Shown here piece by piece: positions 3,285-54,529 of a stretch of DNA of 64,000 bases (position 1 is the stretch's first letter; each line of letters begins with the position of its first letter). The translations under genes were made by a program, and so were the position numbers. The notes under the pieces are model-generated. The model was given only the letters and a program-made list of their open reading frames with translations, did not search any database and had not been told where the DNA came from. This DNA is from Candidatus Enterousia sp. (GTDB lineage Bacteria; Pseudomonadota; Alphaproteobacteria; Rs-D84): NCBI GenBank assembly GCA_045592905.1, contig JAZNVR010000020.1:3471-67470 (forward strand), written 5' to 3'.

Positions 3285-3707
3285 ATCAAAACCTCTTCTT
3301 TACGATCAATAATATCAAATTTCGGCCAAAAAGTCAAGACAAATGTGAAAAAATCACATTTATTTGTAAAAAATGATGGTTTTTGACCATTTTCCATAAT
3401 TTTGGTTATACATACCTACGATATAAAAAATAAAAATCTGCGCCAAGTATTTACATCACCAAATATCAATGTTCAGCGATTGATAAGAAATCATTTAAAT
3501 TCTTTTTTAAGTTCTTATTTAAGAGATTATTTCAGTATTAAAAATCACAAAAAATTATATTGATTAACGGGTATTTAATGGATATTTTTACCAACTTGAA
3601 ATTTACACATATGTACACCACTTGTTTTTTTATGCACCATACCAACACGAAAAAAAGCCCCGATTCCTGCGGTATTGCGAAGTTTTTTTTACTTCCAATT
3701 AAATTTG

Positions 3708-4385: not shown

Positions 4386-5198
4386 TTATGGCACAAAGAT
4401 ATTTAATTTTATAACTTTACAACCGAACGACAAATCCAACAAATACACATCCCTAAACACGGATTTAAAGTCATGTTTTTGTAATTCATTAGAAAAATGA
4501 ACAAAACAATTATCAACCACAACCAACAAATCACATTCATCACAATTCTTCTTATACGATTCAAATTTTCTATTTTTACTATCTATCGTTTTTTGCAATT
4601 CATCAAACGGATCTTCGATACACAACCCCATATTATTAACATGACAAGAAGTATTGGGTTCATGCATTCTACTGGCATGTAAAATAAATGTTTGTCCTTT
4701 TAAATCCACCCACTTTTTTGTTACCCCAAAATCTTTTATTCCTTCTGATTCCAAAACAGATACAAAAATATCTTTGAGTTCTTCGACAGATGCATTTATG
4801 TAATCAAAACCAGGATTGTTATGGACATCTATATGATCTTTCCATTTCACACTATTCTCTCTGGGATCATATACATCTATAACCAAAGACAAAGGGATAC
4901 CTTTTTGTTTAAAATATCCAACAACTTTCTTAGCCGCACCTTCAAGACGCATAGTTGCTTTATTTTTATCGTTCTCGTAAATAAAGTTGACAATTTCCAA
5001 ACCAATTGTTGGTTGATCAGGTACTTCAAATATAAAATCCGGACATTCACAAGGCTTCTTAGTTGTGATACCGTTATCTTCAGCCCATTTTATACCAATT
5101 TTATGGCGTGCAAACAAAGCCAAATAAGTTGCTTCGTTTCCTTTTTGGCTATCTTCTTGAATAATAAACTGTCCACCCTTGTGTACAACTTCTGACAT
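4386..5198 (-). CDS. Hypothetical protein, possible PD-(D/E)xK nuclease fold
   Basis: 270-aa ORF with ECPDFIF...IGLEIV motif; AAGGA RBS. Confidence 0.5.
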   Translation of the reverse strand: MSEVVHKGGQFIIQEDSQKGNEATYLALFARHKIGIKWAEDNGITTKKPCECPDFIFEVPDQPTIGLEIVNFIYENDKNKATMRLEGAAKKVVGYFKQKGIPLSLVIDVYDPRENSVKWKDHIDVHNNPGFDYINASVEELKDIFVSVLESEGIKDFGVTKKWVDLKGQTFILHASRMHEPNTSCHVNNMGLCIEDPFDELQKTIDSKNRKFESYKKNCDECDLLVVVDNCFVHFSNELQKHDFKSVFRDVYLLDLSFGCKVIKLNIFVP

Positions 5199-5307
5199 TC
5201 CAAATCCTTTGCTTAAAAATACTAAAAAATAAATCCATATACAACCACAAAAAAACTGTTGATTTTAAACATTTTTTATGAATATATACATATAAAAAGG
5301 GTAAAAA

Positions 5308-6372
5308 ATGAAATTTTTAAAATTAGATTTATCTTTTAGTAAAATTATTAGTTTCGCTGTCGTAACGATTGTGTGCATATTAGCTTTTGTATCAATAAAC
5401 ACATGTCAACAAGAATTAAAAAAAATTATATTACAAAACGAACAAATACAGATAAATTTATCAAAAACAAAAAATAATTCAGATTTGCAAAAATTATTAG
5501 CAGAATACCATATTAATAATGCTAATTATTCTAAACAATTTTATGAAAAACAAAGTGAATGGTTAAATGTATGGTTATTAATTGTAGGTATATTACTTAC
5601 AACAATAGCCATTATTGCACCACTTCGTTTTTCAGCAAACATTAAACAAATCCAGAAAGATGGCGATGATGTTATAAAAGATATCAGACTAAGAAACATG
5701 CAAGTATCGCAAAAATTAAAAGAAGAAAACGACAAAAGGAATTTGGATTTAATTAAATTTAGACTTGAATATAGAGTATTATTAGAACTTCAATGGTTTG
5801 GGTTTATCACTACTGAACAACAACTGCAAAAATATATTGATAATACACTGCTTGTTATAGATACAGAATGTGCAGACAACCAACAAGAAACACGTTTTAA
5901 GAACAACCTTTATGCTAAAGTATTTCTTCACCAATCTAGATGGTATAATCATAACAAAACATTAACAGAAACTTATAAAAAATCTATTGAATGCGTCAAT
6001 AAAGCTTTACTTTATTCGCCAGACGATGTGGATTTATATATTCATAAAAGTTATATAATAGCAACCGGCAACGAAGAAAACAAACACGATCAGGTTATTG
6101 AATTGCTGGAAAATGTTTTATCTGTTTACTGCTCCAATATAAAAACCTCCGCTTTAAATACAATATATTATAATTTGGCAGAAGCTTACATATTATCCGG
6201 TATTAATAATAATTTATTAAAAGCGATTGATTTATTACCAAAAATAGACACAACAAAAATTCATAAAGATGTGTTAGCAAAAGATTTTATGTCTTGGAAA
6301 CGAAAGTTGCAAAGCATGCCAAATTCTAATAAAAAACAACAGATAATAACATTTATAGATAAACATTCTTAA
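5308..6372 (+). CDS. Membrane-anchored protein with C-terminal TPR-like repeats
   Basis: Two hydrophobic segments; KALLYSPDDVDLY and IYYNLAEAYIL TPR-like patterns; very AT-rich. Confidence 0.55.
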   Translation: MKFLKLDLSFSKIISFAVVTIVCILAFVSINTCQQELKKIILQNEQIQINLSKTKNNSDLQKLLAEYHINNANYSKQFYEKQSEWLNVWLLIVGILLTTIAIIAPLRFSANIKQIQKDGDDVIKDIRLRNMQVSQKLKEENDKRNLDLIKFRLEYRVLLELQWFGFITTEQQLQKYIDNTLLVIDTECADNQQETRFKNNLYAKVFLHQSRWYNHNKTLTETYKKSIECVNKALLYSPDDVDLYIHKSYIIATGNEENKHDQVIELLENVLSVYCSNIKTSALNTIYYNLAEAYILSGINNNLLKAIDLLPKIDTTKIHKDVLAKDFMSWKRKLQSMPNSNKKQQIITFIDKHS

Positions 6373-6471
6373 ATAAGTCGTGGCTTGCACCTTATGGTAC
6401 ACACGTATGATTTTATTTGAAACTTTGGACTTTTTGTATTAGTATCAACCTTGAAACGATAGGAATTTATT

Positions 6472-7295
6472 ATGACAGGAAAAAGTATTAAAATTTACTT
6501 ACCAACAGGAAAGCCTGACGGCTTAAGAAAAGCATATATTACCACAGAAAAACCAGTGGTTTTTCGTATACCGCTTACAGAAATTAGTAACAACATTGAC
6601 CTTCTAGACTTTAATGGTATATATATATTTTAATCGACAGTATAACGACAGAAGCACCACAGATATATGTTGGCAAAGGCAAGGTAAAGTCCAGAATCCA
6701 ACAACACATAAAAAAGAAGACTTTCTGGAATACTGTTTTTGCAATACAACTTGATAGTGCTAGTGGGTTTAGTGATACTGATATTTCCTATCTTGAATAT
6801 TATTTTATAAAGAAAAGCAAAGATTTTAAAAACATAAATTCAGAAGAAAACAAGCAATTTCCGCAGAAACCTCGTTTAAAAGATGAAGAGTTAGATGATT
6901 TACATTGTTATATAGACACGATTGAACTTCTTTTGTCAGAGTTGGGCTTAAAATGTTTTCAAGATGAACCAAAAGACAATCTATTCACATGCCAGGATAA
7001 ATACGGCAGTTTCGGTCAAGGACGTTACAACGCTAATTCTGGTCTTTTGTTATTGAAAGGTGCAAAGTGCAGAATAGAAATGCACAAAGGTACAAAAAGC
7101 TTACCTAAACGTGATGATTTAATAAAAAAACATGTTTTACAAGAAAAGGATGGATTCTACATATTGCAAGAAGATGTTCTTTTCTCTTCCGTCTCATCCG
7201 CTGCTCAAATTGTGTTGGCAAGACGTGCTAACGGCTGGACTGAATGGAAGAACAAGTCTGGAAAAACATTGGATGATTTATACAGGATAAAATAG
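6472..7295 (+). pseudogene. GIY-YIG nuclease / DUF4357 protein, frameshifted in a (TA)5 tract
   Basis: ATG 6472 reads MTGKSIKIYL...GIYIF then stop at 6631; removing one TA gives GIYILID...IYVGKG...RIQQH, open to 7295 and ending FSSVSSAAQIVLARRANGWTEWK. Confidence 0.8.
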
Positions 7296-25479: not shown

Positions 25480-25664
25480 TCTGAATTGGAATTTGTGGTA
25501 TTACGTATAAATTTATATACCGCCCCGAAAATCAATCAAAATCAATGAAAATCACCAGAACTAAATGCCGGCAAAAGCAAATACATAGCAAAAACATTGT
25601 GTATGATGCCAGCCGTGCGAACAATATTATTGACTATCAATACAAATCTAAATATCATTTACGT

Positions 25665-26069
25665 ATGAAAAATTTATTTTTTGTGTTTTCTATGTTTATA
25701 ATACTATCACGTACTGTTTTTGCGGCCCCTGATTACAGGTTTATGATGCAAAGTTGTGATACAGAATACGAAAATGCCAGCAAACGTGCCAATACGACCA
25801 TAGAAATTGTACAAGCAATAGATACACATACGGAATGCTATAAGACAATTGTATCAGAAATAATAACAACAAAATATAGACAAACCCATGAAAGCATGTG
25901 GGGCAATTTTATTCAATATATAGACAGTGCTGCAGATGCAACATCATATATTCAGCGCCCAGATTCTTGTTATCCACAGTGCGGTTCAATCATTGGGATA
26001 AATGCGGCGACATCAAAATTTGATGCCGCCAAACAATACCTGGAACAACTGATTCAGATAAATCAATAA
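25665..26069 (+). CDS. Small exported protein with 4 Cys, convergent on the lysozyme fusion
   Basis: Signal peptide MKNLFFVFSMFIILSRTVFA. Confidence 0.6.
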   Translation: MKNLFFVFSMFIILSRTVFAAPDYRFMMQSCDTEYENASKRANTTIEIVQAIDTHTECYKTIVSEIITTKYRQTHESMWGNFIQYIDSAADATSYIQRPDSCYPQCGSIIGINAATSKFDAAKQYLEQLIQINQ

Positions 26070-27232
26070 CCACTATAGTCTGCATTATTGTATAGCCGCC
26101 ATTCTGCATCACGTCGTCTATCCAAGATTCCTACATTCCTAAATGCACGCCACGCATATTCTAAATTTGGGTAAATATTGCTTTTATATTTATTGTCATT
26201 CAAATATTTTCTAACCGTTGATTGGTATAGCCCACGATTTCTATTTTGTGGTGCAGCAGACCCGGCCCCAATATTAAATACCAGCGACACCAATGCGTCA
26301 TATTGGCTTTGTGTCATATTTGATATGGCATCAGCAGATATTTGTTCGTTTATTGTGTTATAGGTCGCTTGCAGGTCTTGTTCCAACAGTTCTGTTGCCT
26401 GTTGTTCCGTTAAACCAGCACTAAAATCTTCACCTGGCTTTACCAAATGCCCATAGCCAATTGTTGCACCCACTGGCAATGGAACTCCTGCAGGTACAGG
26501 TTTGCCCGTGGCATCATCGTATATAACGTGTTTTCCATTAACCTTGACCGAACCTTCTAACCCTTTCAACCACTCGATACCTTTATCGCTCATTTTCATA
26601 TCAGTAACCTTTTGTGTTTCTGGCTTTTGGCCTTTATAAACCTTGCTGCCTATCTTCTTGCCGTTTTTGTCCAGCTCTATTTCTTCCACCCAACAGCGAC
26701 AGTTTGGATGAACGGGGATATCTGGTATATCTTCTTTGTTTTCATAGACTGTTCCATCATTCCCCGAACATTCATCGCATGTATTTTCGCCATGCTCGCT
26801 GTGCCATATCCATATCTTGGGCTTTATTTCAAACTCTGGAATATTCAAATCAAAGGTTTCCAGACTACGCTTTGACACATGACCACCTGGCATTAAAACT
26901 TTGACCGGTATTGACGTGCCAGGAACAACGTATTCTTCAATATCAAAATTAAAACCAATCGTTTCAAAATAATCACCGTATGTATCAAGAATTTCTGCTT
27001 CTGCCTCGCTTTTATCGGACTCAAACTCCGTTTCTATTTCATGCTGGGCTTTGTAGAACTGTTCCAATGTCATATCGTAATCTGGGTGCATCATACGACC
27101 GGATGCATCAAACTGTACTGTACCGGGGTACAGAATATTCATGTACCTTGTTGCACGTTTATATGTTTCGCTGTTTTTATCGCTGTATTCGGGTGATGAT
27201 ATCAGATCCTGTAAAAATTTTGGTGTTATCAT
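26063..27232 (-). CDS. MuF-like (phage minor head) domain fused to GH24 lysozyme
   Basis: GGAG RBS before ATG 27232; MuF motif WIW.....TCDEC...DG...P.HPNCRC; lysozyme SDKGIEWLKGLEG, IYDD, TIGYGHL, QYDALVSLVFNIG, RRRDAE. Confidence 0.82.
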   Translation of the reverse strand: MITPKFLQDLISSPEYSDKNSETYKRATRYMNILYPGTVQFDASGRMMHPDYDMTLEQFYKAQHEIETEFESDKSEAEAEILDTYGDYFETIGFNFDIEEYVVPGTSIPVKVLMPGGHVSKRSLETFDLNIPEFEIKPKIWIWHSEHGENTCDECSGNDGTVYENKEDIPDIPVHPNCRCWVEEIELDKNGKKIGSKVYKGQKPETQKVTDMKMSDKGIEWLKGLEGSVKVNGKHVIYDDATGKPVPAGVPLPVGATIGYGHLVKPGEDFSAGLTEQQATELLEQDLQATYNTINEQISADAISNMTQSQYDALVSLVFNIGAGSAAPQNRNRGLYQSTVRKYLNDNKYKSNIYPNLEYAWRAFRNVGILDRRRDAEWRLYNNADYSGY

Positions 27233-27245
27233 TGTTTTTCTCCAT

Positions 27246-27339
27246 AAAAAAACACCCGCACGTGGCGGGTAATAAAAAAAACGACCAAATGTCGTTCGCT
27301 GAATAAGTGTATTATACCATAAAATACGAAAATTTTCAA
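27246..27339 (-). promoter_or_regulatory. Sigma70 promoter followed by a two-terminator leader
   Basis: TTGAAA-17-TATAAT; aacgac-atttg-gtcgtt+U run; acccgc-cacgt-gcgggt+G-U7, just before the RBS. Confidence 0.75.
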
Positions 27340-27371
27340 TAAAAAACGACCGGCAAGCGGTCGTTAATTTC

Positions 27372-27447
27372 TGGTGGGGACACAGGGACTCGAACCCTGG
27401 ACCCAATGATTAAAAGTCATTTGCTCTACCAACTGAGCTATGTCCCC
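27372..27447 (-). tRNA. tRNA-Lys(TTT)
   Basis: GGGGACATAGCTCAGTTGGTAGAGC...CTTTTAA...GGTTCGAGTCC...CCA cloverleaf, 76 nt. Confidence 0.97.
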
Positions 27448-40229: not shown

Positions 40230-40429
40230 GACTTGTCCCCCATGCCCCTGGATACCAGCGTTTCAATTTGATGCACCAAAAAACGCTGTGATTCCAATGA
40301 ACGCAATTCTGAATCTGTGGCGTTTGGACCCAAAACACGTTCAATTGTTGTTTTACGTAAATGTTCCAAAACACGCTGACCAGACACACCAGAAAATGTC
40401 TTGGCATATGCAATTTCTATATCTGTCAT
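40226..40429 (-). CDS. Bbp19-like small phage protein
   Basis: YAKTFSG.SGQRVLEHLR......LGP...LR.LESQR.LV..IE; directly after the portal gene. Confidence 0.7.
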   Translation of the reverse strand: MTDIEIAYAKTFSGVSGQRVLEHLRKTTIERVLGPNATDSELRSLESQRFLVHQIETLVSRGMGDKS

Positions 40430-41661
40430 AACGCACCCCCAAGAACACTTTCAATTGTTGTCATTTGTGCAATTGGTGCAATATATTTTAATTCTGCATC
40501 ACTGTTTAGTTTAATCGGTTCAATCAATCCACGTGATGACAATATTTGCAATCCACGATCACATAACGGTCTGATGAATTCATGCAGCATGCGTCCATAT
40601 GTTGCACCCAAAATTCGCATCATATCTGCGTTGCGTGCCATAATTTCTGTTGCTGTCATTTCTTTCTCGCTTAACAGCCCCAACCTGTCCGCCAACAGTG
40701 CATGACGAATTCTGTCACGCAGATCTTTTAATATAATCTGTGAAACATCAAAGTCAGCCGCACTGTTCAATGGGGTCAGACCAGATGAACCAACAGCCTT
40801 TGGTATAATCGCCCCAGGGGTCAGATTGATATTATTCAGATTTATAACCCCATCATCATCTGCCTGCCAGATGCCAGACACTGCGATTGTTGCGTTTTTA
40901 AGCACCAGTTCAACAACCTTGTTCGCAGTTTTAATATCTGGTAATGCACGCATAATTGGACTGCGACCATATATTTCCCCACTGACCACAGACCAGCGGA
41001 ATATAATATATGGATTGGTTTCAAATATGCCAGTTGATACAATATTGTTTTCAATATCACCACCAACATCCAACCACGCTGTAAATTCTGTGCCAACCAG
41101 GCTTTGTACCAATTTCAATTGCATTTCTGGGTTATTTTTGATTGATTCACGTATATTTGATGGCGGTGTCCATGTTGGATATTGTTCCATAACTTCACGT
41201 GCAGACATTGAAGTCGTATGAAATACAGCATTTGGTAAAACTGCAATATCAGACATCGGAATCGCTGTAAAATTAAATGCAGATGATGTACCAATTGGGT
41301 TTTGTGCCATAAACAAGCATGCTGTTCCCAATGTAACCAAATCCATATAACACTGATGCACAGTTGTATAAAAATTAGAATCGTTTAAATGTGCCCGCAA
41401 AACAGATGTTGCATAATCTGCATCTGGTGATAATTCACTTTCTGGAACCAGTTGCAACCACATTGATTCTGGTGGTGTCAACAATGTATAGATAGACGCA
41501 GCCAAATTATCTGCAGCATCTGATGCAGTGGCATCATACAATGTGGCCAAATCATCATCTGATGTTGGCATTGTATATCTGCGTGCATCATCCCAACGCT
41601 TTAACCATGGGTTGCGTAAATCCAAGGCACGTTTATAAAGTTGCTGTAAGTTATTTTGCAT
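40426..41661 (-). CDS. Portal / head-to-tail connector (T7 gp8/Bbp21-like), compact
   Basis: LYDATA.DA.DNLAA.....LTPP...W, DLVTLGTA, PYIIFRW....GEIYGRSP.MRALPDIKTAN, MTATEI. Confidence 0.88.
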   Translation of the reverse strand: MQNNLQQLYKRALDLRNPWLKRWDDARRYTMPTSDDDLATLYDATASDAADNLAASIYTLLTPPESMWLQLVPESELSPDADYATSVLRAHLNDSNFYTTVHQCYMDLVTLGTACLFMAQNPIGTSSAFNFTAIPMSDIAVLPNAVFHTTSMSAREVMEQYPTWTPPSNIRESIKNNPEMQLKLVQSLVGTEFTAWLDVGGDIENNIVSTGIFETNPYIIFRWSVVSGEIYGRSPIMRALPDIKTANKVVELVLKNATIAVSGIWQADDDGVINLNNINLTPGAIIPKAVGSSGLTPLNSAADFDVSQIILKDLRDRIRHALLADRLGLLSEKEMTATEIMARNADMMRILGATYGRMLHEFIRPLCDRGLQILSSRGLIEPIKLNSDAELKYIAPIAQMTTIESVLGGAL

Positions 41662-41689: not shown

Positions 41690-42529
41690 CTAAATCTTGA
41701 AATTTGTGTTTGCATTAAATGTTTTAACGCCATACCCCAATGGCCGAACAGGTATTGGTGTTTGTGCAATCGCACCGGCAACCGCATCCAATCCGTCATC
41801 ATGACCCGCATACGCAACAGGCGACCAACCAATCATTTCTGCAATCAATGGTGTTTTCTGGACACGTATATGTGCGTATAAATGCCCCGTACTTAGAACC
41901 GGTTCAATCGCAGACAATATGCGTTCTGATTTTGCACGATTATTTGCCACACGATTTACATATATGTTGCATCCACGACGCATGGCACAATCACGCATAA
42001 TTTCTGGCAATCCGCCACCAATACCATTTGTTTCAATTGTAATTTTGTTTAATCTATGCTGATACATATAATCAATTATCATGTCGCATTGGCAGGACAA
42101 TGGAAATTGTTCTGAATCAGGCACCGTTAAATACAAAATATCATGAATAAAAACATGTCTATTTTTATCATCACGATATAACAAAACACATGCACTGCCA
42201 TCACGTTTACTGCGACCGGTTGACGGATCCCAATACAACATGCAACCAGAAATTATGTATTCGCCAATTTTGGCTGTTCTGGGTTCAAATTCTTCGTTAT
42301 ACAAATGCAATCCGCCTGGATCAAGTCTGGCACGTTCTGGCGAAATAAATTCTAGCATCATTTGTGCAGAAAAATGTCGTGGCCCAACCGTTTGACGCAT
42401 TTGGTCTATTTTTTCGTGCGGAAACAATTCTGGCCATACCGGTTTTCCGGCATTATCCACGATTGGAATTTTTAATATTTTATATCCTGATAAAAAAGGC
42501 GTTGAAAAAGCATTTTTTTCATATAACAT
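41690..42529 (-). CDS. Terminase large subunit, C-terminal nuclease half
   Basis: Probable start MLYEK at 42529; WPELF, F.AQMM, YWDPS...DGSA, IETNGIG, K..RI..AIEP, HDDGLDA. Confidence 0.82.
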   Translation of the reverse strand: MLYEKNAFSTPFLSGYKILKIPIVDNAGKPVWPELFPHEKIDQMRQTVGPRHFSAQMMLEFISPERARLDPGGLHLYNEEFEPRTAKIGEYIISGCMLYWDPSTGRSKRDGSACVLLYRDDKNRHVFIHDILYLTVPDSEQFPLSCQCDMIIDYMYQHRLNKITIETNGIGGGLPEIMRDCAMRRGCNIYVNRVANNRAKSERILSAIEPVLSTGHLYAHIRVQKTPLIAEMIGWSPVAYAGHDDGLDAVAGAIAQTPIPVRPLGYGVKTFNANTNFKI

Positions 42530-42551
42530 TGAACCAAAGAAGGAATTTGAC

Positions 42552-44117
42552 ATGGACTTTACCCCTAAAACTTTACCTACGAATTTAGAAGCCGAACAGG
42601 CTGTGTTGGCTGCTGTTTTAATGAACAATCGTGCACTAGAAAACGTGTCAGAATTCCTGCGGGCAGAACATTTTTCACATCCTGCACACCAAGAAATATA
42701 TAAACTAGCAAACCGTCAATTTTCAGCCGGCATTCCATTTGATATAATCACTGCAAAAAATTACTTGGATCAACAAGGTGTTCTGGAAACTGTTGGTGGT
42801 GTTGATTACCTGACACAGTTATCTGGTGCTGGTGCAACTGTTGTGAACATTGAACAATATGCAAGAATTGTATACGAACATGCAATGCGACGTAACTTAA
42901 TTGCATTGGGTCAAGATATTACTGACAAGGCATTTATTGAAGATTTAGATAATCCTGTATCACGACAAATTGAAATTGCGGAACAAAAACTGTTTGATAT
43001 GGCAACAATTGGTTCATCTGAACGTGAAGTTACATCTATTAAATCTGCATTAGATGCCGCACTGAAAGAAGTTGAAATCGCATATAAGGCAGATGGTCAA
43101 CTGTCTGGTTTAACAACAGGATTGTCTGCACTGGATAAATCAATCAGTGGGTTGCATAATTCTGACTTAATTATTATTGCTGGACGACCAGCGATGGGAA
43201 AAACCACACTGGCAACGAACATTGCATTTAATGCCGCAAATGCAATTATGTACGGTCGTGCAAATCCAAACTACAAGGGTGTTGTTGCATTTTTTAGTCT
43301 TGAAATGTCATCATCACAATTGGCTGCACGTATATTGTCATCTCAATCCAAGGTACCTGCATCCGCAATGCGTGAAGGGGCTGTAACAGATGAAGATTTT
43401 ATGAAGATGACACAGTATTCCGCTGCAATCAGCAAAATACCATTGTTTATTGATGATACACCCGGAATGTCCGTCCCAATGATTCGCACACGTGCCAGAC
43501 GCTTGGCACGCAAGCATGGCGGAATCGCACTGATTGTAATTGACTATCTGCAATTAATGACATCACCTGGTGGCAAAAAAAGCGATAATCGTGTCCAAGA
43601 AATTTCTGAAATAACACGTGGTCTGAAAATGCTGGCCAAAGACTTAAATGTTCCTGTTATCGCATTGTCCCAGTTATCACGTAGTGTTGAATCACGTGAT
43701 GACAAACGTCCACAATTGGCAGACTTGCGTGAATCAGGTTCTATTGAACAAGATGCTGATATTGTTATGTTCACATATCGTGAAGAATATTATCTGCAAA
43801 ATCGTGACCCATCAGAAAGAATGTCTAATACAACAAACAACGCAATGGTTGAAAGTTGGCAAAAACGTTTAGAACGTGCACGTGGCAAAGCAGATATTAT
43901 CATTGGCAAAAACCGACATGGTCGCCCAGAAACCGTACGAACAGCGTTCTTTGGCGATTACAGTCTGTTTGACAATCTGGATGAATTCCAAGCACGTGGC
44001 GAAAATGAATTCGCACAGCCTGCACCAACTGTTTCTGCGTCAACGTTTGCACCAAATCCTGACACAATGCCAACAGCGATTGACCCAGATGAAATACCAG
44101 ACGATATTCTAATGTAA
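42552..44117 (+). CDS. dnaB: Replicative DNA helicase
   Basis: P.NLEAEQAVL, AGRPAMGKT, FSLEMS, IDYLQL, LSQLSR.VESR.DKRPQLADLRESGSIEQDAD, KNRHG. Confidence 0.97.
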   Translation: MDFTPKTLPTNLEAEQAVLAAVLMNNRALENVSEFLRAEHFSHPAHQEIYKLANRQFSAGIPFDIITAKNYLDQQGVLETVGGVDYLTQLSGAGATVVNIEQYARIVYEHAMRRNLIALGQDITDKAFIEDLDNPVSRQIEIAEQKLFDMATIGSSEREVTSIKSALDAALKEVEIAYKADGQLSGLTTGLSALDKSISGLHNSDLIIIAGRPAMGKTTLATNIAFNAANAIMYGRANPNYKGVVAFFSLEMSSSQLAARILSSQSKVPASAMREGAVTDEDFMKMTQYSAAISKIPLFIDDTPGMSVPMIRTRARRLARKHGGIALIVIDYLQLMTSPGGKKSDNRVQEISEITRGLKMLAKDLNVPVIALSQLSRSVESRDDKRPQLADLRESGSIEQDADIVMFTYREEYYLQNRDPSERMSNTTNNAMVESWQKRLERARGKADIIIGKNRHGRPETVRTAFFGDYSLFDNLDEFQARGENEFAQPAPTVSASTFAPNPDTMPTAIDPDEIPDDILM

Positions 44118-44195
44118 TTTTGTATGATTTTACTTGCACATTTTCTAAAAATTGACTAATATTTTGTCAAGAAATAAATTTTTAGGAGCATTGCC

Positions 44196-45203
44196 ATGGC
44201 ACAAGAAGAAATCATTTTTCCAAATAATATACGCAACATTCGGTTGGCGGCTGGTATGAAAATGACTGAATTAGCACGCAGAACTGGATTATCATTATCC
44301 GCAGTATCCAAAATTGAAAAAGGCGTTCGTCGCTTAAACCAAAAACAATTGTTAAATATTTGCAGTATCTTGGGTTGCAAATTATCAGATATATTTATCA
44401 AGGAATCTGACGACGTTGCAAATCAATGGCAAAATGAAATCAAACGCCGTATGACAGATAACGAAGATAACGGTCTGAAAGTATTCGGCAGTGGATTACG
44501 CAAAATCCGCCAAATCAAAGGTAAAACTATCGCACAGGCTGCCAAAGATGCTGGAATGACATTGTCTGTATATCATAAAATAGAAGTTGGACAACGTGAA
44601 ATCTATAAAAATGAAATTGAACCGTTGGCAAAATCATTCGCAATGGGCGTTGAAGATATGTTTCAACAAATCGCAGATTTATATAAATCTGGTGAATTAA
44701 ACAAACATATTAACAAGGTCAAAGAACGTGTCAAATCTGTTTTAATTCCAGGCAGTCCAATATCTGGTATTGACATGCAAGGCAGCGTTTTTGGTGCAAA
44801 ATTATATGACAGTGCACGAAAAAAATTAGTTCCTGTGTTTGGTATGCCTGCTGGAAAGGCAATTGCATTCAAAAAGTCTGACGAAACAATGATTGTCGCA
44901 CCAATCGCACTGGAAGGTCGCAAAGGTGTTTATGCTGTTGTTCCAAACACAAAAAGACTGGGTGGATTTATACCAGAAAAATCATACGTATTTGTTGATG
45001 CATTAACACCCGCAACCCCAGGCGATTTAGCGGTATGTGTTGACCCAGATTTTGATAACTTGAATTCAGAAACAACAACAACCGCACATATCGTAAGTGT
45101 TCGTCAAGATTCCAAAGGCAATTTGTATGGCCATATTGCAGCACCAGAAGAAAAAATTACTGGCAAACTAATGCACAAGGTCATAATGATTGTTACAGAA
45201 TAA
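44196..45203 (+). CDS. Regulator with two XRE HTH domains and a degenerate S24-like C-terminus
   Basis: IRNIR..AGM...ELA..TGLS.SAVSKIEKG and LRKIR......AQAA..AGM..SVY.KIEVG; C-terminal VPVFG..AG...YAV...VFVD...PGD. Confidence 0.8.
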   Translation: MAQEEIIFPNNIRNIRLAAGMKMTELARRTGLSLSAVSKIEKGVRRLNQKQLLNICSILGCKLSDIFIKESDDVANQWQNEIKRRMTDNEDNGLKVFGSGLRKIRQIKGKTIAQAAKDAGMTLSVYHKIEVGQREIYKNEIEPLAKSFAMGVEDMFQQIADLYKSGELNKHINKVKERVKSVLIPGSPISGIDMQGSVFGAKLYDSARKKLVPVFGMPAGKAIAFKKSDETMIVAPIALEGRKGVYAVVPNTKRLGGFIPEKSYVFVDALTPATPGDLAVCVDPDFDNLNSETTTTAHIVSVRQDSKGNLYGHIAAPEEKITGKLMHKVIMIVTE

Positions 45204-45233
45204 ATCACCCTATATGGAGAGAGAGGGTATACC

Positions 45234-45875
45234 ATGAAAGCAAAAATTCGTGCAACCGCACAAAAGTTACTAAATCTGTATCGCCAAGCACATGTAATTG
45301 TTGGTGGCTGGGGTACGGTTAACCCAATCTTTGTTGACGAAGCGGACGATAATGTAATTCATGAAATTCAAGATTTACCAACTGGTAAAATGCTGGTGCG
45401 TCATATTGAAAATCTGCGTAGTGGCAAAACCCCAATGGATTCAATTGAACGTGAATTGTTACCATATGGCGGCATGATGGTTGGCGAAGAAATTACCCCG
45501 ATTAATCTGACAGCAGAACAATGGTCTGAATTAGAATATGGACTTGAAAACTTTGTTCCAAACCAAGAAGGACTTGATGCATTCACTTCATTGGATGTTA
45601 TTAAGCATTTTGGCGAACAATGGCCCGAAATAATTAGTTCTGTTATACAATCAAAAAAACATTTACAAGATAAATGGGCTGCTGTAAAGCATACTTTTAA
45701 CGCATACAGACTGTGGGTATCTGCAAATGAGGTTATATCAAAACCATTAACGGAACGTGTTCGTGCCCAAGTTCAAGCAGATATGCCAGAATACGAAACA
45801 TACTTGCCGATGTTTGGCGATGCAGGTAATAAACTGTTAACAAAATTACGCACATTTATCAGCAGCATTGGTTAA
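45234..45875 (+). CDS. Hypothetical protein
   Basis: 213-aa ORF with GAGGG RBS; its stop overlaps the TerL-N stop in TTAA. Confidence 0.7.
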   Translation: MKAKIRATAQKLLNLYRQAHVIVGGWGTVNPIFVDEADDNVIHEIQDLPTGKMLVRHIENLRSGKTPMDSIERELLPYGGMMVGEEITPINLTAEQWSELEYGLENFVPNQEGLDAFTSLDVIKHFGEQWPEIISSVIQSKKHLQDKWAAVKHTFNAYRLWVSANEVISKPLTERVRAQVQADMPEYETYLPMFGDAGNKLLTKLRTFISSIG

Positions 45876-46477
45876 TCACTTGAATCGGTACGATATATCG
45901 TATCATATGTATGCGGTGTTCCAATATAAATCATTGTTCCCGATGGCGATAAGATAAAATCTAGTTCACGCAACCGTTCTCGCAGACTTTCTCGTTTGAC
46001 AGCAGTGTTTGATGTATTTGGCACTTCTACGTCATCACATATTATTAAATCTGCACGCATACCTGTTATATTTCCATAAACGCCCTGACAAATAACAGAC
46101 GGTTCACGAATACCTATTGGTCTGTTAATTGTTATGCGTCCTGTGGCCCACTCTTTTTTATTTGTTGGAATTAATTCAGAACAAAACGTATGATTTTCCA
46201 AAATATGTTTTATATGTGCTACCATACGGGTTGCCAACGTAGATTCTGCGGACAATATCAATATTCTGGTTTCTGGCCGCAAGTATAAAACACATGCCGC
46301 AAACACACCAACAACCGTAGATTTTCCAGAATGCCGAAACGCCATTAATAAACCACGATGTGGATTATGTGTCCAAACATCAACAAAAAAACGCATTATA
46401 GTACGATGATGTTTGGGTGTTTTTAATCCCAGAATTCTGTTCCATTCATCTAAAAAATTATAAAACTCCGTAATCAT
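45872..46477 (-). CDS. Terminase large subunit, N-terminal ATPase half
   Basis: Walker A MAFRHSGKST, ITGMRAD, Walker B IICDDVE, motif III YIGTPH; ends 12 residues later. Confidence 0.85.
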   Translation of the reverse strand: MITEFYNFLDEWNRILGLKTPKHHRTIMRFFVDVWTHNPHRGLLMAFRHSGKSTVVGVFAACVLYLRPETRILILSAESTLATRMVAHIKHILENHTFCSELIPTNKKEWATGRITINRPIGIREPSVICQGVYGNITGMRADLIICDDVEVPNTSNTAVKRESLRERLRELDFILSPSGTMIYIGTPHTYDTIYRTDSSD

Positions 46478-47009
46478 CGTTATTTTCATTTGGTGCAGGT
46501 TCAGAAACAAATCCGTAATCATTTATCAATACAGGCAACGCATTTTTTAGAACACTGACCAGGTTACGATACAGCCCCAGCACCGCCCCACCGGACAATT
46601 TGTCTTCTATGACCTGTAATGTATAATCCATTTGTTTTTTTATTTCATCATGTTTGTTGACCCATTCTAATAAATCAACATCTATGTTTTGTATGTCTTG
46701 AAATGCAGCCAGCAGAAAATTGAAATCCGAATTCAAGTGTTCTGGATCAATGATTTTTGTTGGCTGATAATCAATTACACGTGACAGTGATATCTGCCGA
46801 AATATATCTATCTTGGTATCAGCAGTTGGTGCAACATCAAAAACGACATTTCCACCAGAAAAATCATCATTTGGTATAATTGAAAAATTTTGATTTTCAC
46901 AATCTATGACATCATCAATAGCAACATGAATATCTGCAATTTGAAAGAAAGGAAAAGAAAACGCAAATTCTGTTGTATTACCATCTGAAACATAAGATAT
47001 TTTATACAT
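46458..47009 (-). CDS. T7 gp17-like tail-fibre N-terminal (adaptor) protein
   Basis: Y.SDGNTTEF.F.FPFF...DI.V, GG.VVF..AP......I.R, LN.DF..L....QD; ends with two DYG motifs. Confidence 0.8.
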   Translation of the reverse strand: MYKISYVSDGNTTEFAFSFPFFQIADIHVAIDDVIDCENQNFSIIPNDDFSGGNVVFDVAPTADTKIDIFRQISLSRVIDYQPTKIIDPEHLNSDFNFLLAAFQDIQNIDVDLLEWVNKHDEIKKQMDYTLQVIEDKLSGGAVLGLYRNLVSVLKNALPVLINDYGFVSEPAPNENNDDYGVL

Positions 47010-50003: not shown

Positions 50004-50831
50004 TTATGCAGATTGTGTATCAGAACATTTAACACGTACGATACCATCACCATCAATTAAAACCGCACCCTGGGACATGCTGTTGCTGATAAAGTGTGCA
50101 GCACGTTCACCATGCCAAGAAATATCTGTTTTAACTTCTTGACCGCATGCATGACCGATACTGGATGCATGATAAATAAAGCAGTCACGATTTGTTTCAG
50201 ACACAGGCAAACCATTATACAGAACCCATGTAATTCCCAACCATTTGCGTGCTTCACAACCATTGATTAATGGTGTTTCACTGCCAACATAATCTGCGGA
50301 AACAAATTCATCCATTGACAATAATTCATTCCACTGATGAACACCAACAACAGCAAAGCGACGGCCATCATCTGGCACATCATTTGTGTTTAATACTTCA
50401 ACAGCAGACAATATTAAATCTTTGGTTAATCCAGTTGTATAATCACCAACATTTGCTGTTGCAGTATTCATTGCAGCAACAATTAATTCATCTGTTTTGC
50501 GTCCCAATGCGTATGCACCAGCAGAAGCCACAACACGACGTTCATCAACATTTGTTTTTAATTCATCCAATGCATCAACCCAATCACCTGCGTAATAATC
50601 TTGCAGCAAGCATTCCACAGGTTCATGATTTAAATTCATAACAGGCACAATACCATGACGTGATTTTGTACTGGCGGTGCCACGACCTACTTTTTGGAAC
50701 GTAGTAGATGCACCAACGACGCCAGATTTACTGCGAACAGTTGAACGCAACTTTGTTCCCATTTGTTGATATGCCAAATGCACATCAGCTTCAAATTGTT
50801 TTACAAAAACATTATCTATTGAAATAGACAT
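50004..50831 (-). CDS. Major capsid protein (podovirus type)
   Basis: FVKQFEADVHLAYQ..G.KLR.TV, F.KVG, D.LDELK, A.ALGRK.DE.I, DVPDDG.R. Confidence 0.88.
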   Translation of the reverse strand: MSISIDNVFVKQFEADVHLAYQQMGTKLRSTVRSKSGVVGASTTFQKVGRGTASTKSRHGIVPVMNLNHEPVECLLQDYYAGDWVDALDELKTNVDERRVVASAGAYALGRKTDELIVAAMNTATANVGDYTTGLTKDLILSAVEVLNTNDVPDDGRRFAVVGVHQWNELLSMDEFVSADYVGSETPLINGCEARKWLGITWVLYNGLPVSETNRDCFIYHASSIGHACGQEVKTDISWHGERAAHFISNSMSQGAVLIDGDGIVRVKCSDTQSA

Positions 50832-51060: not shown

Positions 51061-51354
51061 TTATTTCTTTTTTGCACATGCTTTTTTTGCAACTGGTTTT
51101 GCAGCCACTTTTTTAACAGGTGCTTTTTTTGCAACTGGTTTTGCAGCTGGTTTTTTTGCAGGTGCTTTTTTTGCAACTGGTTTTGCAGCCACTTTTTTTG
51201 CAGGTGCTTTTTTTGCAACTGGTTTTGCAGCTGGTTTTTTTGCAGGTGCTTTTTTTCCAACTGGTTTTGCAGCCGCTTTTTTTGCAGGTGCTTTTTTTGC
51301 AGCTGGTTTTGCAGCTGGTTTTTCTGCTACTTTTTTCTTAAAAAAGAAACGCAT
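51061..51354 (-). CDS. Histone H1-like K/A/P-rich DNA-binding protein
   Basis: AGGAG RBS; KKAPAKK(P/V)AAKPVA repeats; own TTTACT-17-TAAAAT promoter. Confidence 0.8.
   Translation of the reverse strand: MRFFFKKKVAEKPAAKPAAKKAPAKKAAAKPVGKKAPAKKPAAKPVAKKAPAKKVAAKPVAKKAPAKKPAAKPVAKKAPVKKVAAKPVAKKACAKKK
51080..51330 (-). repeat. Imperfect ~42-bp coding tandem repeat in the H1-like gene
   Basis: Repeated tttttgcaactggttttgcagc...ttttttgcaggtgc. Confidence 0.85.
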
Positions 51355-51464
51355 TTCTTCTCTCCTATTTTGTTTGAAGATAGAACAAACTTTTTTTGTT
51401 CTTGTTTTATATTTTATATTAAACATAAAATTTAGTAAAGAAGAAAAGTAAAAAAATCATATAT

Positions 51465-52121
51465 TTATGAATATAATTTTTTGAAACCATTTTCAATTTT
51501 TCTGATATATTCTGTATCATTATCACGCCAATATTTTGGATCACGCATCATGCGTCTTAAATCATCATCTGTTAAATTTTGTGTTTCATTTTTATCTGTT
51601 TTTACATTTGGTTCCATAGATTGCATCATCTTATACACGCTTTGTATTCCCTGGGGTGTAGAGCACAGTTCATTAAATGCATCATGTGGTAAAAATTTTT
51701 CACCGAATGCATTAATTGCATTTAATGCGTCCTTCATTTTTTCTGTTCCGCCAAAGAAATTTTTCAATTCATTTATTGCACCTGTTTCATTTTTCACAGA
51801 AAACAAATCAGATATAACTGGCGACAAAAAATTATTTGCGATGTCATAAATTTTTTCTACTTGTGATTTTGTTAATCCGATTTTCAAGAATTGTTCACGC
51901 AGATTTTCATCATCATACAAATCATTTTTTGGATAATCATCTGCACAATCTGGCACACCGATTGCCCGATTAAATTTTCTTTTTGCATCATCATCTGAAT
52001 TTTCTGTTGGCACAGAAATCATTGTTCCGATTTTTTTCTCTAATTCAGTATATGATTTTATCAAAGAATCAGAATTTAACGTACCATCTTCATTCAGAAA
52101 TTTTTCTGGTATATTATCCAT
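51465..52121 (-). CDS. Capsid assembly scaffolding protein (T7 gp9-like)
   Basis: IPEKF...DG......L.KSY.ELEKK; GVP...DDY; C-terminal LRRMMRDPKYWRD....I..I..GF.KLY. Confidence 0.8.
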   Translation of the reverse strand: MDNIPEKFLNEDGTLNSDSLIKSYTELEKKIGTMISVPTENSDDDAKRKFNRAIGVPDCADDYPKNDLYDDENLREQFLKIGLTKSQVEKIYDIANNFLSPVISDLFSVKNETGAINELKNFFGGTEKMKDALNAINAFGEKFLPHDAFNELCSTPQGIQSVYKMMQSMEPNVKTDKNETQNLTDDDLRRMMRDPKYWRDNDTEYIRKIENGFKKLYS

Positions 52122-52311
52122 TGTTTTTTCCTTTTGTTTCATTTGATTTACGCAAGAAATAAATCCCCCCCAATGTAAAGACTGTTTGCAACATAGTAAA
52201 CACATCTGTATCACCAACCAAGTACGCTGCCACAGCAGAAAGTATCCCTGTTCCAGAAATTATATACGTACGATATCCGGTCAGATATCCGCCCTTGAAA
52301 AACTTTTGCAT
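52114..52311 (-). CDS. Holin-like small 2-TM protein
   Basis: L.GYRTYII....ILSAVAAYLVG...TLGGIYFLR plus basic tail. Confidence 0.6.
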   Translation of the reverse strand: MQKFFKGGYLTGYRTYIISGTGILSAVAAYLVGDTDVFTMLQTVFTLGGIYFLRKSNETKGKNNG

Positions 52312-52331
52312 TAAAACACCTTTTTTAAGTA

Positions 52332-52742
52332 TTACAGATAGAACAGAAAACCATCTATATCTGCGATATATCCACGTGCGATGGCCCATTGTGGCATAGT
52401 ATCAGCCGCATGAAATTTTATTGCACCCCGACATGCATCATCCAGTCCCCCCATTAACATACGCTGTGCGACACGCACGCACATTTGGAATTTACGGTTA
52501 TTCGCATTCACATTTAATTTTTGATATTTATCTGATGTTACATTCAGTGCATCAAACACAGATTTATCTGTAATAACATCTGCGATGGCCCGACCTGATT
52601 TATCTGAAATATTTTTTATCATAGAAGTCATTGCTTCCACCAGTGTCAGCGATATTGCATCTGTTTGTGCGTATACGACACGTGCGACTTTATATGCCAG
52701 TGATGCGGACACATCTGGATTTTTTATTATTGTTAATTGCAT
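52332..52742 (-). CDS. SleB/Hydrolase_2-like cell-wall hydrolase, apparently degenerate
   Basis: ARVVYAQT (canonical ART.YxEA), D...GA.KFHA...P.WA......IDGFLFY. Confidence 0.7.
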   Translation of the reverse strand: MQLTIIKNPDVSASLAYKVARVVYAQTDAISLTLVEAMTSMIKNISDKSGRAIADVITDKSVFDALNVTSDKYQKLNVNANNRKFQMCVRVAQRMLMGGLDDACRGAIKFHAADTMPQWAIARGYIADIDGFLFYL

Positions 52743-52762
52743 ATCTTTAATTGCCTTTTGGT

Positions 52763-52874
52763 AAAAAAAGTCCCTGTGCGGACACACAGGGAATAAAAAA
52801 ACCACACATATCGTGTGGGCACAATCTGTACTGTTTATGTGCAATATAGTATCATATTTTTCATTAAAAGTCAA
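52763..52874 (-). promoter_or_regulatory. Virion operon promoter followed by a two-terminator leader
   Basis: TTGACT-17-TACTAT; ccacac-gatat-gtgtgg+U7; tccctgtg-tgtccg-cacaggga-c-U7. Confidence 0.75.
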
Positions 52875-52908: not shown

Positions 52909-53589
52909 TTACAGACTTATTTCATCGCCATACACCAGTAAATATCGTGTATCACGTCGCAGAACCAGCGCACCATTTTCGTTTATTCCGACCAATTGTG
53001 CGATTTCCCCCTGATATTTAACAGGTTTATTAATACATACGGCCAATTCTGTCCATTTATCACGCACAGCCCTAAAATCTGCATTACGCCATTTATTTAT
53101 ATTACGCATCAGTCTGTTCAGTAATTCTGTCAGTGGTGTTTCTGCATAATTATCCAACTTGGTTGTTTTATACTTATCAACAGTTGGGTTTGTATTTACA
53201 TTTATACCGATTCCGACGACGACGAACCGTCCAGTATATTCAATCAAGATTCCTGCGATTTTTTTACCATCCACCAGAATATCATTTGGCCATTTTATTT
53301 CAGGATGTGCCCCAAATGATGCGATTGATTCAGCCACTGCCACCGCCACAGCATACGACAAACGTGGATCACGTTCTGGGGATTCAAAGATAAAACTGAC
53401 ATATAAATTACCATGGTGCGACACCCAGTTTCTGCGATATCTGCCCCGACCGGCCGACTGTGCAGCGGCCAGCACCACTGTTTTATCAGTTGCCCGCCCT
53501 GCATTAATTAATTCGTGTGCATAGTCCTGGGTACTGGGGATTTTATCAAACGATATTAATTTATAATTTGCCAATTTTGTACACCCCAT
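52909..53589 (-). CDS. birA: Biotin--protein ligase (no HTH)
   Basis: STQD, QSAGRGR..RNW.S..GNLY, IKWPNDI..GKKIAGILIE, GIGIN. Confidence 0.93.
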   Translation of the reverse strand: MGCTKLANYKLISFDKIPSTQDYAHELINAGRATDKTVVLAAAQSAGRGRYRRNWVSHHGNLYVSFIFESPERDPRLSYAVAVAVAESIASFGAHPEIKWPNDILVDGKKIAGILIEYTGRFVVVGIGINVNTNPTVDKYKTTKLDNYAETPLTELLNRLMRNINKWRNADFRAVRDKWTELAVCINKPVKYQGEIAQLVGINENGALVLRRDTRYLLVYGDEISL

Positions 53590-53980
53590 TATTATTTATG
53601 ATAAATTCCCGTCCGTACACACGACGTAATCCAGATATAGCGGTATCAACCACATGTGTTGCAACATTTGGTGCGTATCCCAGTGCGTTTTTCAATTCCC
53701 CCAGTGTCATTCCCCCTGATTTATACAGCATTACGATAATTTGTTCCTGGGTTCGTGGCAGCGATATTTTTTCACCAAATATCTGAAATAACAGATTAGT
53801 ATTATCTGTTGCATTCAGTATAATTGTTTTCAGTTCCATTGGGCTGATTATTTTATTTACATTCAGATTATCAAAATTGACATCTGTAACAGACGGCACG
53901 TCCAGCACAGTTGCCCCGAAATCGGCCAATATTTGTTTCCACACAGGATTTGCAGAATATATACGTACACCACTTAACAT
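53561..53980 (-). CDS. Winged-helix protein with OmpR-type C-terminal DNA-binding domain and vestigial N-terminus
   Basis: EL...LGY....THVVDTAISGLRR....I.N.GVY. Confidence 0.65.
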   Translation of the reverse strand: MLSGVRIYSANPVWKQILADFGATVLDVPSVTDVNFDNLNVNKIISPMELKTIILNATDNTNLLFQIFGEKISLPRTQEQIIVMLYKSGGMTLGELKNALGYAPNVATHVVDTAISGLRRVYGREFIINNNGVYKIGKL

Positions 53981-54079: not shown

Positions 54080-54328
54080 CTATTGTCGTTCATTATCAGG
54101 TGTTGCACCAATAAACTTGGTAAAGTCTTGAATTTTTGCCCCTGTTGACGACAAAATTTTAGAAATACTGTTTGTTGATGGCCATCGTGGTTGACCTTCT
54201 TTGGACCATCTTTTACTTTTATTAAATGTTGTTGGGTCCAGTCCACTGCATTTTGCCAATCCGGAACAAGACATACCATGTTCTGTTGCGAATTTTTCTA
54301 TTGCATGCCAGACATCATCATGTGTCAT
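54080..54328 (-). CDS. Alphaproteobacterial phage-repressor-like HTH protein lacking the usual S24 domain
   Basis: THDDVWHAIEKFA...GMS.SGLAK.SGLDPTTFNKSKR...G.PRWPST.SISK.L; GGGAG RBS. Confidence 0.8.
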   Translation of the reverse strand: MTHDDVWHAIEKFATEHGMSCSGLAKCSGLDPTTFNKSKRWSKEGQPRWPSTNSISKILSSTGAKIQDFTKFIGATPDNERQ

Positions 54329-54529
54329 TTTTTTCTCCCTTCTATTTTTTTTCAACACTAGAATTTATATTTTTTGTCTAATGCACATTGATTTTATTCC
54401 AGAAATCCAAGGCTTACAACAAGTACCATTTCCTAGGAATCAAAGAACAAAACCACCCAACAAAATATACAAAAAAATTTTTTTGACAAAACACTTGACG
54501 AATCGATTTTTGTGTACTATATTTTAATT

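Follow-up and report, generated by a model that had tools for sequence, protein, structure and literature searches.

The 64,000-nucleotide window analyzed here covers positions 3,471 to 67,470 (forward strand) of contig JAZNVR010000020.1 in the assembly GCA_045592905.1 of Candidatus Enterousia sp. (Alphaproteobacteria; Rs-D84). It contains a gene for a MuF-type protein with a muramidase end and, separately, a T7-like phage element with its own scaffold and capsid genes. The N-terminal module of the MuF-type protein, referred to below as the tag, is, judging from profile comparisons, a diverged relative or copy of the C-terminal tail of T7-type scaffolds; the relatedness appears true but distant. 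Because a copy of a scaffold tail here fronts a set of exchangeable wall-degrading enzymes, loading into the capsid and then delivery would be its most economical function. Our preferred reading, to which we assign a probability of about 55%, is that the gene product belongs to a polymorphic family of effectors that attack peptidoglycan and travel in the particle, and that the tag loads it into the domesticated capsid; within this reading we infer coat binding, encapsidation, delivery, immunity and antitermination. The MuF-type proteins of the tagged family, which carry exchangeable ends, are called MuF-X proteins.

A Scaffold-Tail-Like Module at the N-Terminus

The tagged gene is an intact open reading frame (ORF) of 389 aa on the reverse strand (26063-27232, with its ATG at 27232), and the last 36 codons of the scaffold lie at 51468-51575 on the same strand, as an earlier, preliminary description of this DNA had given them. 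The segments of the tagged gene and its two presumed partners are the following:

27119-27232 (-): tag, residues 1-38, supported by hhalign (residues 5-35/40 onto scaffold residues 187-218), helix pattern and the ratio of nonsynonymous to synonymous substitution rates (dN/dS)
26618-27118 (-): rest of the conserved N-domain, with an extended stretch, helix 56-92, beta core, zinc ribbon 135-182 and a recombination junction near residue 205
26063-26617 (-): linker and GH24 muramidase domain, including the stop codon (PF00959, E 2e-18)
51465-52121 (-): T7-type scaffold, 218 aa (PF05396, E 3.9e-9), with its tail at 51468-51575
50004-50831 (-): major capsid protein, the presumed target of tail and tag (PF19821, E 7.5e-71)

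The preliminary description had matched tag and tail by eye, and this likeness rose above chance when family was compared with family but stayed at chance level one-to-one. BLASTP did not report the tag against the last 36 residues of the scaffold, and the Smith-Waterman score of 29 was matched by 2.2% and 6.3% of 5000 shuffles. Against the scaffold tail, the tagged ORF ranked 75th of 2960 ORFs of its own genome; with a scaffold-tail hidden Markov model (HMM) built from 50 scaffolds of the order, it came at about the 400th place, and its paralogue at about the 157th, among 5329 own-genome ORFs. The same HMM gave a best E of 10 against 116 MuF-X family members. PF05396, which recovers the scaffold tail at E 6e-4, found none of nine tagged N-termini at E≤10, and the invariant W198 and near-invariant R199 of the scaffold are lost in the tags. 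These results count against the preferred reading.

Comparison of alignments with hhalign consistently gave, as the best local match, the N-terminus of the tagged family placed onto the extreme C-terminus of the scaffold. For long forms only, residues 7-26 aligned with scaffold residues 189-208 (score 26.8, P 0.0031), and one of 300 column shuffles reached this score. A second class of short forms (about 285 aa), in which the tag stands directly before the zinc ribbon, gave the same placement when used alone (33 columns, P 0.022). Long and short forms together scored 32.7 over 31 columns (P 5e-5); none of 472 whole-alignment and 397 within-tail shuffles reached that value, and the reversed scaffold scored 10.6. 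When 86 N-termini were compared with 112 distinct tails from the order and IMG/VR, the probability was 92.8% (P 4e-7, score 34.2, 37 columns), with 0 of 306 order-shuffles reaching the score and with the shared positions forming the hydrophobic face and the ends of the match; in the tag they include L7, L10/I11, Y16, Y24 and L34-Y35-P36-G37. Ten tags on canonical MuF cores, compared with the tails without a shuffle control, gave 96.1% (P 3e-9, score 40.7). The profile-profile match that the preliminary description had asked for is present in the last three comparisons, and the score climbs with each addition of diversity.

The relation could also be recovered from the opposite side. An HMM of the tag, run against 8488 ORFs from 80 T7-like loci of IMG/VR, returned 39 matches at E≤10 (best E 0.077), every one of them a scaffold matched at its C-terminal tail, and the alignment extends to a common L-[YF]-P-G end present in many tails. 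Among 8418 ORFs from 80 unrelated viral loci bearing MuF, it found none at E≤1. The scaffold-tail HMM that had been suggested as a check missed the gene in its own genome, but the comparison works in reverse and profile against profile. Tag helices 5-12, 14-17 and 22-34 of the AlphaFold model, moreover, mirror predicted scaffold helices 185-192, 195-198 and 203-217 in the same register. A chance match of two amphipathic helix-turn-helix peptides would account for the one-to-one results and for the failure of the tail HMM; set against the shuffles, the reversed scaffold, the exclusive recovery of scaffold tails and the rising score, it is a very improbable explanation and one already disfavored.

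In 12 pairs, dN/dS was 0.04-0.10 for the tag and 0.09-0.21 for the remaining N-domain, and P4, L7, Y16, K19, Y30, P36 and G37 are invariant in the 49 homologous sequences used for residue counts. Purifying selection thus acts strongly on the tag, which argues that it is functional. A complex prediction from the capsid alignment with N-terminal residues 1-55 (score 0.01, mark 0.32) speaks neither for nor against binding. Inspection by eye of four genomes gave no clear pattern of co-variation between tag and resident tail, and a sequence search of solved structures with the scaffold gave no meaningful match.

The GH24 assignment made earlier holds for residues 254-377 (PF00959, 67.3 bits against a cut-off of 22.3), and E226, the candidate catalytic residue, is invariant. 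Of the MuF zinc-motif domain also claimed, the zinc-ribbon half was recovered; PF04233 aligns with residues 135-182 over model positions 61-111 only, and the window protein, at 23.3 bits, misses the gathering score of 29.6. One of eight relatives passes it (L072, 35.8 bits), and L077 lacks a match. Within the ribbon, C152, C155, H175 and C180 are invariant, and C178 occurs in at least 90% of the 49 homologues. With tblastn, residues 36-180 were linked to cyanophage PSS2 through its minor head protein, and MuF-like proteins of Microbacterium phages matched the zinc-ribbon stretch. The possibility that the tag is itself the first half of PF04233 was rejected: in the seven relatives having a PF04233 match, short and long forms included, the match begins at model positions 54-63. 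The AlphaFold model of the whole protein (mean predicted local distance difference test score 86) begins with the short N-terminal helices and a less confident extended stretch, after which come the long helix 56-92 and a beta-rich core; a disordered linker at residues 206-209 joins this core to the lysozyme. A Foldseek search with this model returned solved muramidases and endolysins (E 6e-6, TM 0.74-0.79 on the target) for the lysozyme domain alone, and the N-domain was unmatched.

A Polymorphic Family Behind tRNA Genes

The gene had been described as a solitary cargo gene, which it is not. A second paralogue lies at C20:69277, just outside the window, and relatives hold one to four N-domain matches, fragments included. 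The paralogue is 72% identical over the N-domain, ends in a Tlde1/YkuD-like domain, follows a tRNA-Glu gene and is itself followed by two small membrane ORFs. In public proteins, the same N-terminal portion of about 200 residues (80-92% identity) is joined to PF00959, PF05838 or PF03734/PF10908; homologues part ways after about residue 205, and the N-terminus is highly conserved in 120 of them. The expectation that relatives would hold other tagged proteins with varied C-terminal domains was borne out, since GH24, GH108, Tlde1-like and M23 ends were all found, the last on a short form. Across 13 loci inspected for synteny, the ends are GH24 in three, T4-lysozyme-like in three, GH108 in three and Tlde1-like in four. 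One N-terminus with four end types, besides M23, agrees with the polymorphism that the preliminary description had claimed in assigning the gene to the MuF toxin family. One of the loci also has an orphan GH108 module.

In all 13 loci, the tagged gene follows a tRNA gene, the family using three tRNA-adjacent slots: tRNA-Lys (2 loci), tRNA-Glu (2) and tRNA-Ala-His (9). The flanks of the gene in the window are:

27372-27447 (-): tRNA-Lys(UUU), directly upstream of the tagged gene (ARAGORN; Rfam RF00005, 77.5 bits)
25545-26069 (+): convergent 174-aa ORF with a signal-peptide-like stretch, from the ORF list; a weak candidate immunity protein

No Pfam family was found for the 174-aa ORF. The small ORFs neighboring MuF-X genes track the end type, in four of four loci with Tlde1-like, three of three with GH108 and three of three with T4-lysozyme-like ends, and those downstream are candidates for allele-specific immunity genes. 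Because small ORFs are specific to the end type, ends are swapped at one junction and an orphan module is present, the arrangement resembles the toxin-immunity pattern of polymorphic systems. RNA-library contigs from four runs of one study cover parts of the gene's relatives; those of two runs break at 26617, where relatives diverge at the junction, and one contig spans the coding region into the leader. As the libraries may contain DNA, these contigs prove neither transcription nor read-through, and gaps in their cover carry no meaning.

The distribution of the family was followed in 151 genomes from 22 genera of the order, 107 of them in the same genus; the genome from which the window comes (0.99 Mb, 33 contigs) is 97% complete. 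The tag was found in 63 of the 151, and 61 of these 63 also hold the scaffold. Of the others, G025 has its portal at a contig end, and G121 (same genus, 0.8 Mb, 5 contigs, 94% complete) has an intact tagged MuF-X ORF of 421 aa. In G052, the portal is followed at a distance of about 1 kb by a short-form gene.

Beyond the order, a profile of tag plus zinc ribbon matched 1505 representatives at E≤0.001, most of them through the zinc ribbon alone; of the 146 new proteins among the 150 matches listed, 38 carry the tag at E≤6e-6, and these include ones with a canonical MuF core. Several other arrangements were observed. P0330 and P0384 are small proteins in which two tags in tandem make up the whole chain; in P0055 (a cluster of 14 member sequences), the first 22 residues are joined directly to a lysozyme without the MuF core; and in P0250, tag and zinc ribbon lie C-terminal to another domain, the tag thus being internal. 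Searches of GTDB contigs with P0380 alone gave nothing; repeated with alignment A6, they gave 67 loci with a canonical MuF core, five of which, all from uncultured Alphaproteobacteria, carry the tag. In this second lineage, the scaffold occurs in four of five genomes with tagged MuF and in one of ten with untagged MuF (one-sided Fisher test, 0.017), the sample of 15 genomes being small and not phylogenetically independent. Tag and scaffold therefore co-occur in two lineages.

A further ORF with a tail-like N-terminus was seen in L106, a GC-rich T7-like element of IMG/VR. It lies between scaffold and capsid within 4417-7215, its N-terminus matches the scaffold-tail HMM at E 2e-8, and no Pfam family was found for its C-terminal part; downstream of it are three ORFs, paralogous to one another, with the look of an immunity array. 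An IMG/VR search with this ORF returned itself alone, and one with the MuF-X alignment returned no relatives by the patterns used.

Several features of this distribution tell against capsid loading. The family is present in 50 of the 107 same-genus genomes, so that about half of the genus is without it, and the particle evidently does not need it. G121 keeps its tagged gene with no scaffold, capsid or portal match. Within the order, co-occurrence of tag and scaffold says little, as the scaffold is near-universal, and the dependence among the second-lineage genomes limits the comparison made there. Finally, fragments aside, the tag was found in the order only with the MuF zinc ribbon, so that the two could form a single MuF-type unit in which the tag is no free-standing address.

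The Domesticated Element and Its Leaders

The scaffold and the PF19821 capsid are accompanied by T7-like tubular tail proteins, a fibre stub, a portal and a terminase split in two:

40426-41661 (-): portal protein of the element (PF12236, E 3.8e-82)
41690-42628 (-): terminase large subunit, C-terminal nuclease half (PF22530)
45872-46522 (-): terminase large subunit, N-terminal ATPase half (phrog_38, E 8.7e-43)

The scaffold occurs in 138 of the 151 genomes and in 19 of 22 genera of the order (105 of 107 genomes of the genus), as a single match in nearly all and as two matches in four. Its identity is 64-84% among members of the genus, dropping to 46-67% across the family and to 26-40% across the order. 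This order-wide survey, with its vertical, near-universal, single-copy presence and its divergence tracking kinship, indicates that the element is a long-domesticated podovirus-like cluster and not a recent prophage. By its capsid, the closest cultured phage is Pelagibacter phage Hodr (44% identity), whose scaffold also has the tail; the capsid is 55-61% identical to those of IMG/VR relatives whose scaffolds are about 32% identical.

The terminase ATPase half is a separate ORF in all five relatives searched, two other families included, and the nuclease half was likewise present in five of five, about 3.2 kb from the N half in three same-genus genomes. As both halves are conserved as separate ORFs, DNA packaging is probably retained. 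The preliminary description had seen in the particle a protein-delivery device; with both terminase halves and the portal conserved, it is probably not a pure protein carrier. Between the halves in the window (41690-46522), the opposite strand carries a dnaB replicative helicase, a double helix-turn-helix (HTH) protein and a 213-aa ORF, while in one other family the halves are adjacent.

Of all parts of the scaffold, the tail is the best conserved, with hardly any variation among 120 homologues; isolated, it matches positions 158-186 of the 188 in PF05396, and a predicted disordered linker (residues 171-180) precedes it. By analogy with P22 and 80alpha, it is most likely the coat-binding module, and its conservation and flexible tether fit such a role. 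Scaffold domains bound to coat have been described in procapsids of P22, T7, SPP1 and 80alpha (PMC12005531).

The leaders of the tagged gene and of the capsid cluster share one build:

27233-27345 (-): leader of the tagged gene, with a promoter-like site, two terminator-like hairpins and GGAG
52771-52874 (-): capsid-cluster leader, in which two terminator-like hairpins come after a promoter-like site

The first of these sits between the tRNA terminator and the start codon. Its near-consensus promoter (TTGAAA at 27339-27334, 17 nt, TGgTATAAT at 27319-27311) is followed by hairpin-plus-T-run sites at about 27297-27274 and 27270-27246 and by GGAG at 27243-27240, 8 nt upstream of the ATG. This leader recurs ahead of the paralogue, of an HExxH gene on C22 and, as judged by eye, of the homologues in all 13 loci. 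The preliminary description had invoked a shared leader architecture, and a promoter with two terminators was indeed seen before both the tagged gene and the capsid cluster; the architecture is common to the two leaders, and their sequences are not alike. Additional hairpins precede the capsid gene. Just seven tandem terminator pairs were found in a strict scan of the genome, which overlooked the leader of the window gene itself. Four of the seven lie at these two elements: the leaders of the paralogue and of the capsid cluster have one each, and two that overlap precede the capsid gene. Rfam reported nothing in the tagged leader above the gathering score other than tRNA. The capsid operon of BaGTA is controlled by Q-like antitermination (10.1101/2024.11.20.624540), and by analogy we infer that antitermination may co-regulate the capsid cluster and the effector genes.

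Some neighboring features were also noted. The HExxH protein (290 aa, L005 3129-4001 (-)) lies behind tRNA-Ala/tRNA-His, a slot that houses MuF-X genes in relatives, and has neither the tag nor a Pfam family. Between the scaffold and capsid genes is a lysine/alanine/proline-repeat, histone-H1-like ORF (51061-51426 (-), weak PF07382), with two to three terminator-like hairpins (51054-50953) separating it from the capsid gene. The capsid cluster opens with what looks like a lysis pair (52114-52874 (-)), comprising a cell-wall hydrolase (weak PF07486) whose true start is probably near 52742 and a 91-aa ORF that is membrane/holin-like by eye. The tagged MuF-lysozyme was considered as the particle's lysis enzyme and set aside; the cluster has this hydrolase gene of its own, and an endolysin would need no tag, MuF core or allele-specific neighbors. 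Upstream of the cluster, beyond birA, a 139-aa ORF with a C-terminal half that is winged-helix-like by eye (53561-53980 (-)) and a Cro/C1-type HTH ORF (54080-54358 (-)) are candidate regulators of the element, as are the window's 44196-45203 and 45234-45875. In IMG/VR (L085-L164), scaffolds bearing this tail motif are encoded on at least 591 viral contigs, many of which are 12-13 kb long; the ORF sizes of L101 fit the order portal, scaffold, capsid, tubular proteins, and several contigs bear genome-style rather than metagenome-style identifiers. Similar structural-only clusters may thus be widespread.

Proposed Function, Rivals and Known Systems

In the mechanism that we propose, an antiterminator would open the promoter-plus-double-terminator leaders of the capsid cluster and the effector genes together. 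During procapsid assembly, the tag would take the scaffold-tail site, which P22 and 80alpha suggest to be on the inward side of the coat protein, so that a few effector molecules would be enclosed in the particle. The particle would bring the muramidase to another cell, whose wall would be cut; other alleles would bring GH108, a Tlde1-like L,D-transpeptidase or M23 instead, and the allele-specific small genes beside them would protect kin.

The wall-degrading ends could have another purpose. MuF-X proteins would then be structural ejection proteins of a gene transfer agent (GTA)-like particle and not toxins, the hydrolase opening the recipient wall for DNA entry in the manner of the gp16 transglycosylase of T7; the tag would still be a loading signal. 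We consider this unlikely, although the conserved portal, terminase halves, tubular tail proteins and fibre stub indicate a DNA-packaging particle, and the cluster has no ORF of gp15/gp16 size, only one of 114 aa between the tubular protein and the fibre stub. A weak match to phrog_2083 ('internal virion lysozyme motif') and the fact that every C-terminal domain seen attacks peptidoglycan also agree with ejection. Such a structural part would be hard to reconcile, however, with a family that is far less frequent in the genus than the scaffold (50 against 105 of 107 genomes) and that has several paralogues and fragments per genome. Allele swapping at one junction, type-specific small ORFs and an orphan module form instead the toxin-immunity pattern, and Tlde1-like and M23 domains are not known as usual penetration enzymes.

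It is about equally improbable, in our estimation, that the tag is a true relative of the tail that no longer uses the coat site and may bind the portal, the scaffold core or itself within a MuF-type unit, or that the proteins act independently of the particle. The nearly constant union of tag and MuF zinc ribbon would fit this reading, as would the short-form gene near the portal in G052 and the case of SPP1, where the MuF protein gp7 binds the portal (PMC5576092). Retention of the gene in G121 without particle genes and loss of scaffold-invariant residues in the tag favor it as well. Yet the positions that are shared in the 37-column match are those of the hydrophobic face and the ends, and the tag is under strong purifying selection. 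The tandem-only, internal and direct-to-lysozyme variants (P0330, P0384, P0250 and P0055) suggest a separable module, and in the L106 ORF a tail-like N-terminus occurs with no MuF core behind it. Capsid loading through the coat site is the reading that we prefer.

Loading by a terminal address has known parallels. In encapsulins and in engineered P22 scaffold fusions, cargo is loaded by way of a terminal peptide or scaffold fragment that attaches to the inside of an HK97-fold shell; these are DNA-free compartments or laboratory constructs, whereas the particle here would be natural, tailed and probably DNA-packaging. In phage T4, a capsid targeting sequence is removed by the prohead protease. 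Like the tag, this T4 sequence is a short, conserved N-terminal signal on diverse proteins that enter the prohead, and it works on foreign proteins such as GFP; its target, however, is the scaffolding core, and it does not copy a scaffold tail (PMC3012670). The CpmB protein of SaPI1 competes with the 80alpha scaffold for the coat-protein site (PMC5644958). CpmB is an alternative scaffold that alters capsid size, while the module described here stands at the N-terminus of an enzyme and would be a loading address.

The closest likeness is to the MuF polymorphic toxins of temperate phages, which are presumed to reside in the phage head and likewise have a conserved MuF-type N-terminal region, swappable toxin ends and, downstream, small genes that are candidates for immunity (Jamet et al., 2017; PMC5576092). 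Several features set the present family apart. Only the zinc-ribbon half of PF04233 is found, below the cut-off in the window protein, and the C-terminal ends are enzymes acting on peptidoglycan, whereas neither 'lysozyme' nor 'peptidoglycan' occurs in the main text of that paper. MuF toxin genes lie directly after the portal within a (pro)phage packaging module; here, the tagged gene (26063-27232) stands behind tRNA-Lys, away from the portal (40426-41661), and only the short form of G052 is near one. The element that hosts the family is no prophage but a domesticated cluster conserved in the chromosome, and the scaffold-tail-like N-terminal module is an addition of which no mention was found in the part of the source covered (PMC5576092). 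With BaGTA (BrrG), a gene transfer agent of Alphaproteobacteria under antitermination control, the element has in common a domesticated phage origin, dispersed loci and termination sites between promoter and structural genes (10.1101/2024.11.20.624540); it differs in being T7-like (PF05396 scaffold, PF19821 capsid, PF12236 portal) with a terminase divided between two genes.

A limited keyword search of the literature, with supplementary files outside its scope, gave no description of the element or of a scaffold-tail tag on MuF proteins. Outside T4 and P22, the entry of minor proteins into phage heads is poorly understood. A natural scaffold-tail copy serving as an N-terminal address would, if confirmed, provide a simple and testable rule for T7-type shells and a natural counterpart of the scaffold-fusion loading engineered in nanotechnology. 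More tentatively, the tail module may be a general, portable address for T7-type procapsids, and the particle a weapon whose warhead is exchanged by recombination, which is fired by antitermination and which spares kin through allele-specific immunity. It is likewise a possibility, and one that we advance with reserve, that this weapon is used throughout the order of gut Alphaproteobacteria with small genomes, as well as in one or more other lineages. If so, it would constitute a contact-independent route of toxin delivery that differs from secretion systems, tailocins and classical gene transfer agents. Effector loading would also mean that a phage-derived particle kept by almost all members of an order of 1-Mb gut bacteria carries exchangeable cell-wall toxins. 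Such a particle would bear on why domesticated particles are kept, whether for gene transfer, killing or both, and on competition among strains in gut communities.

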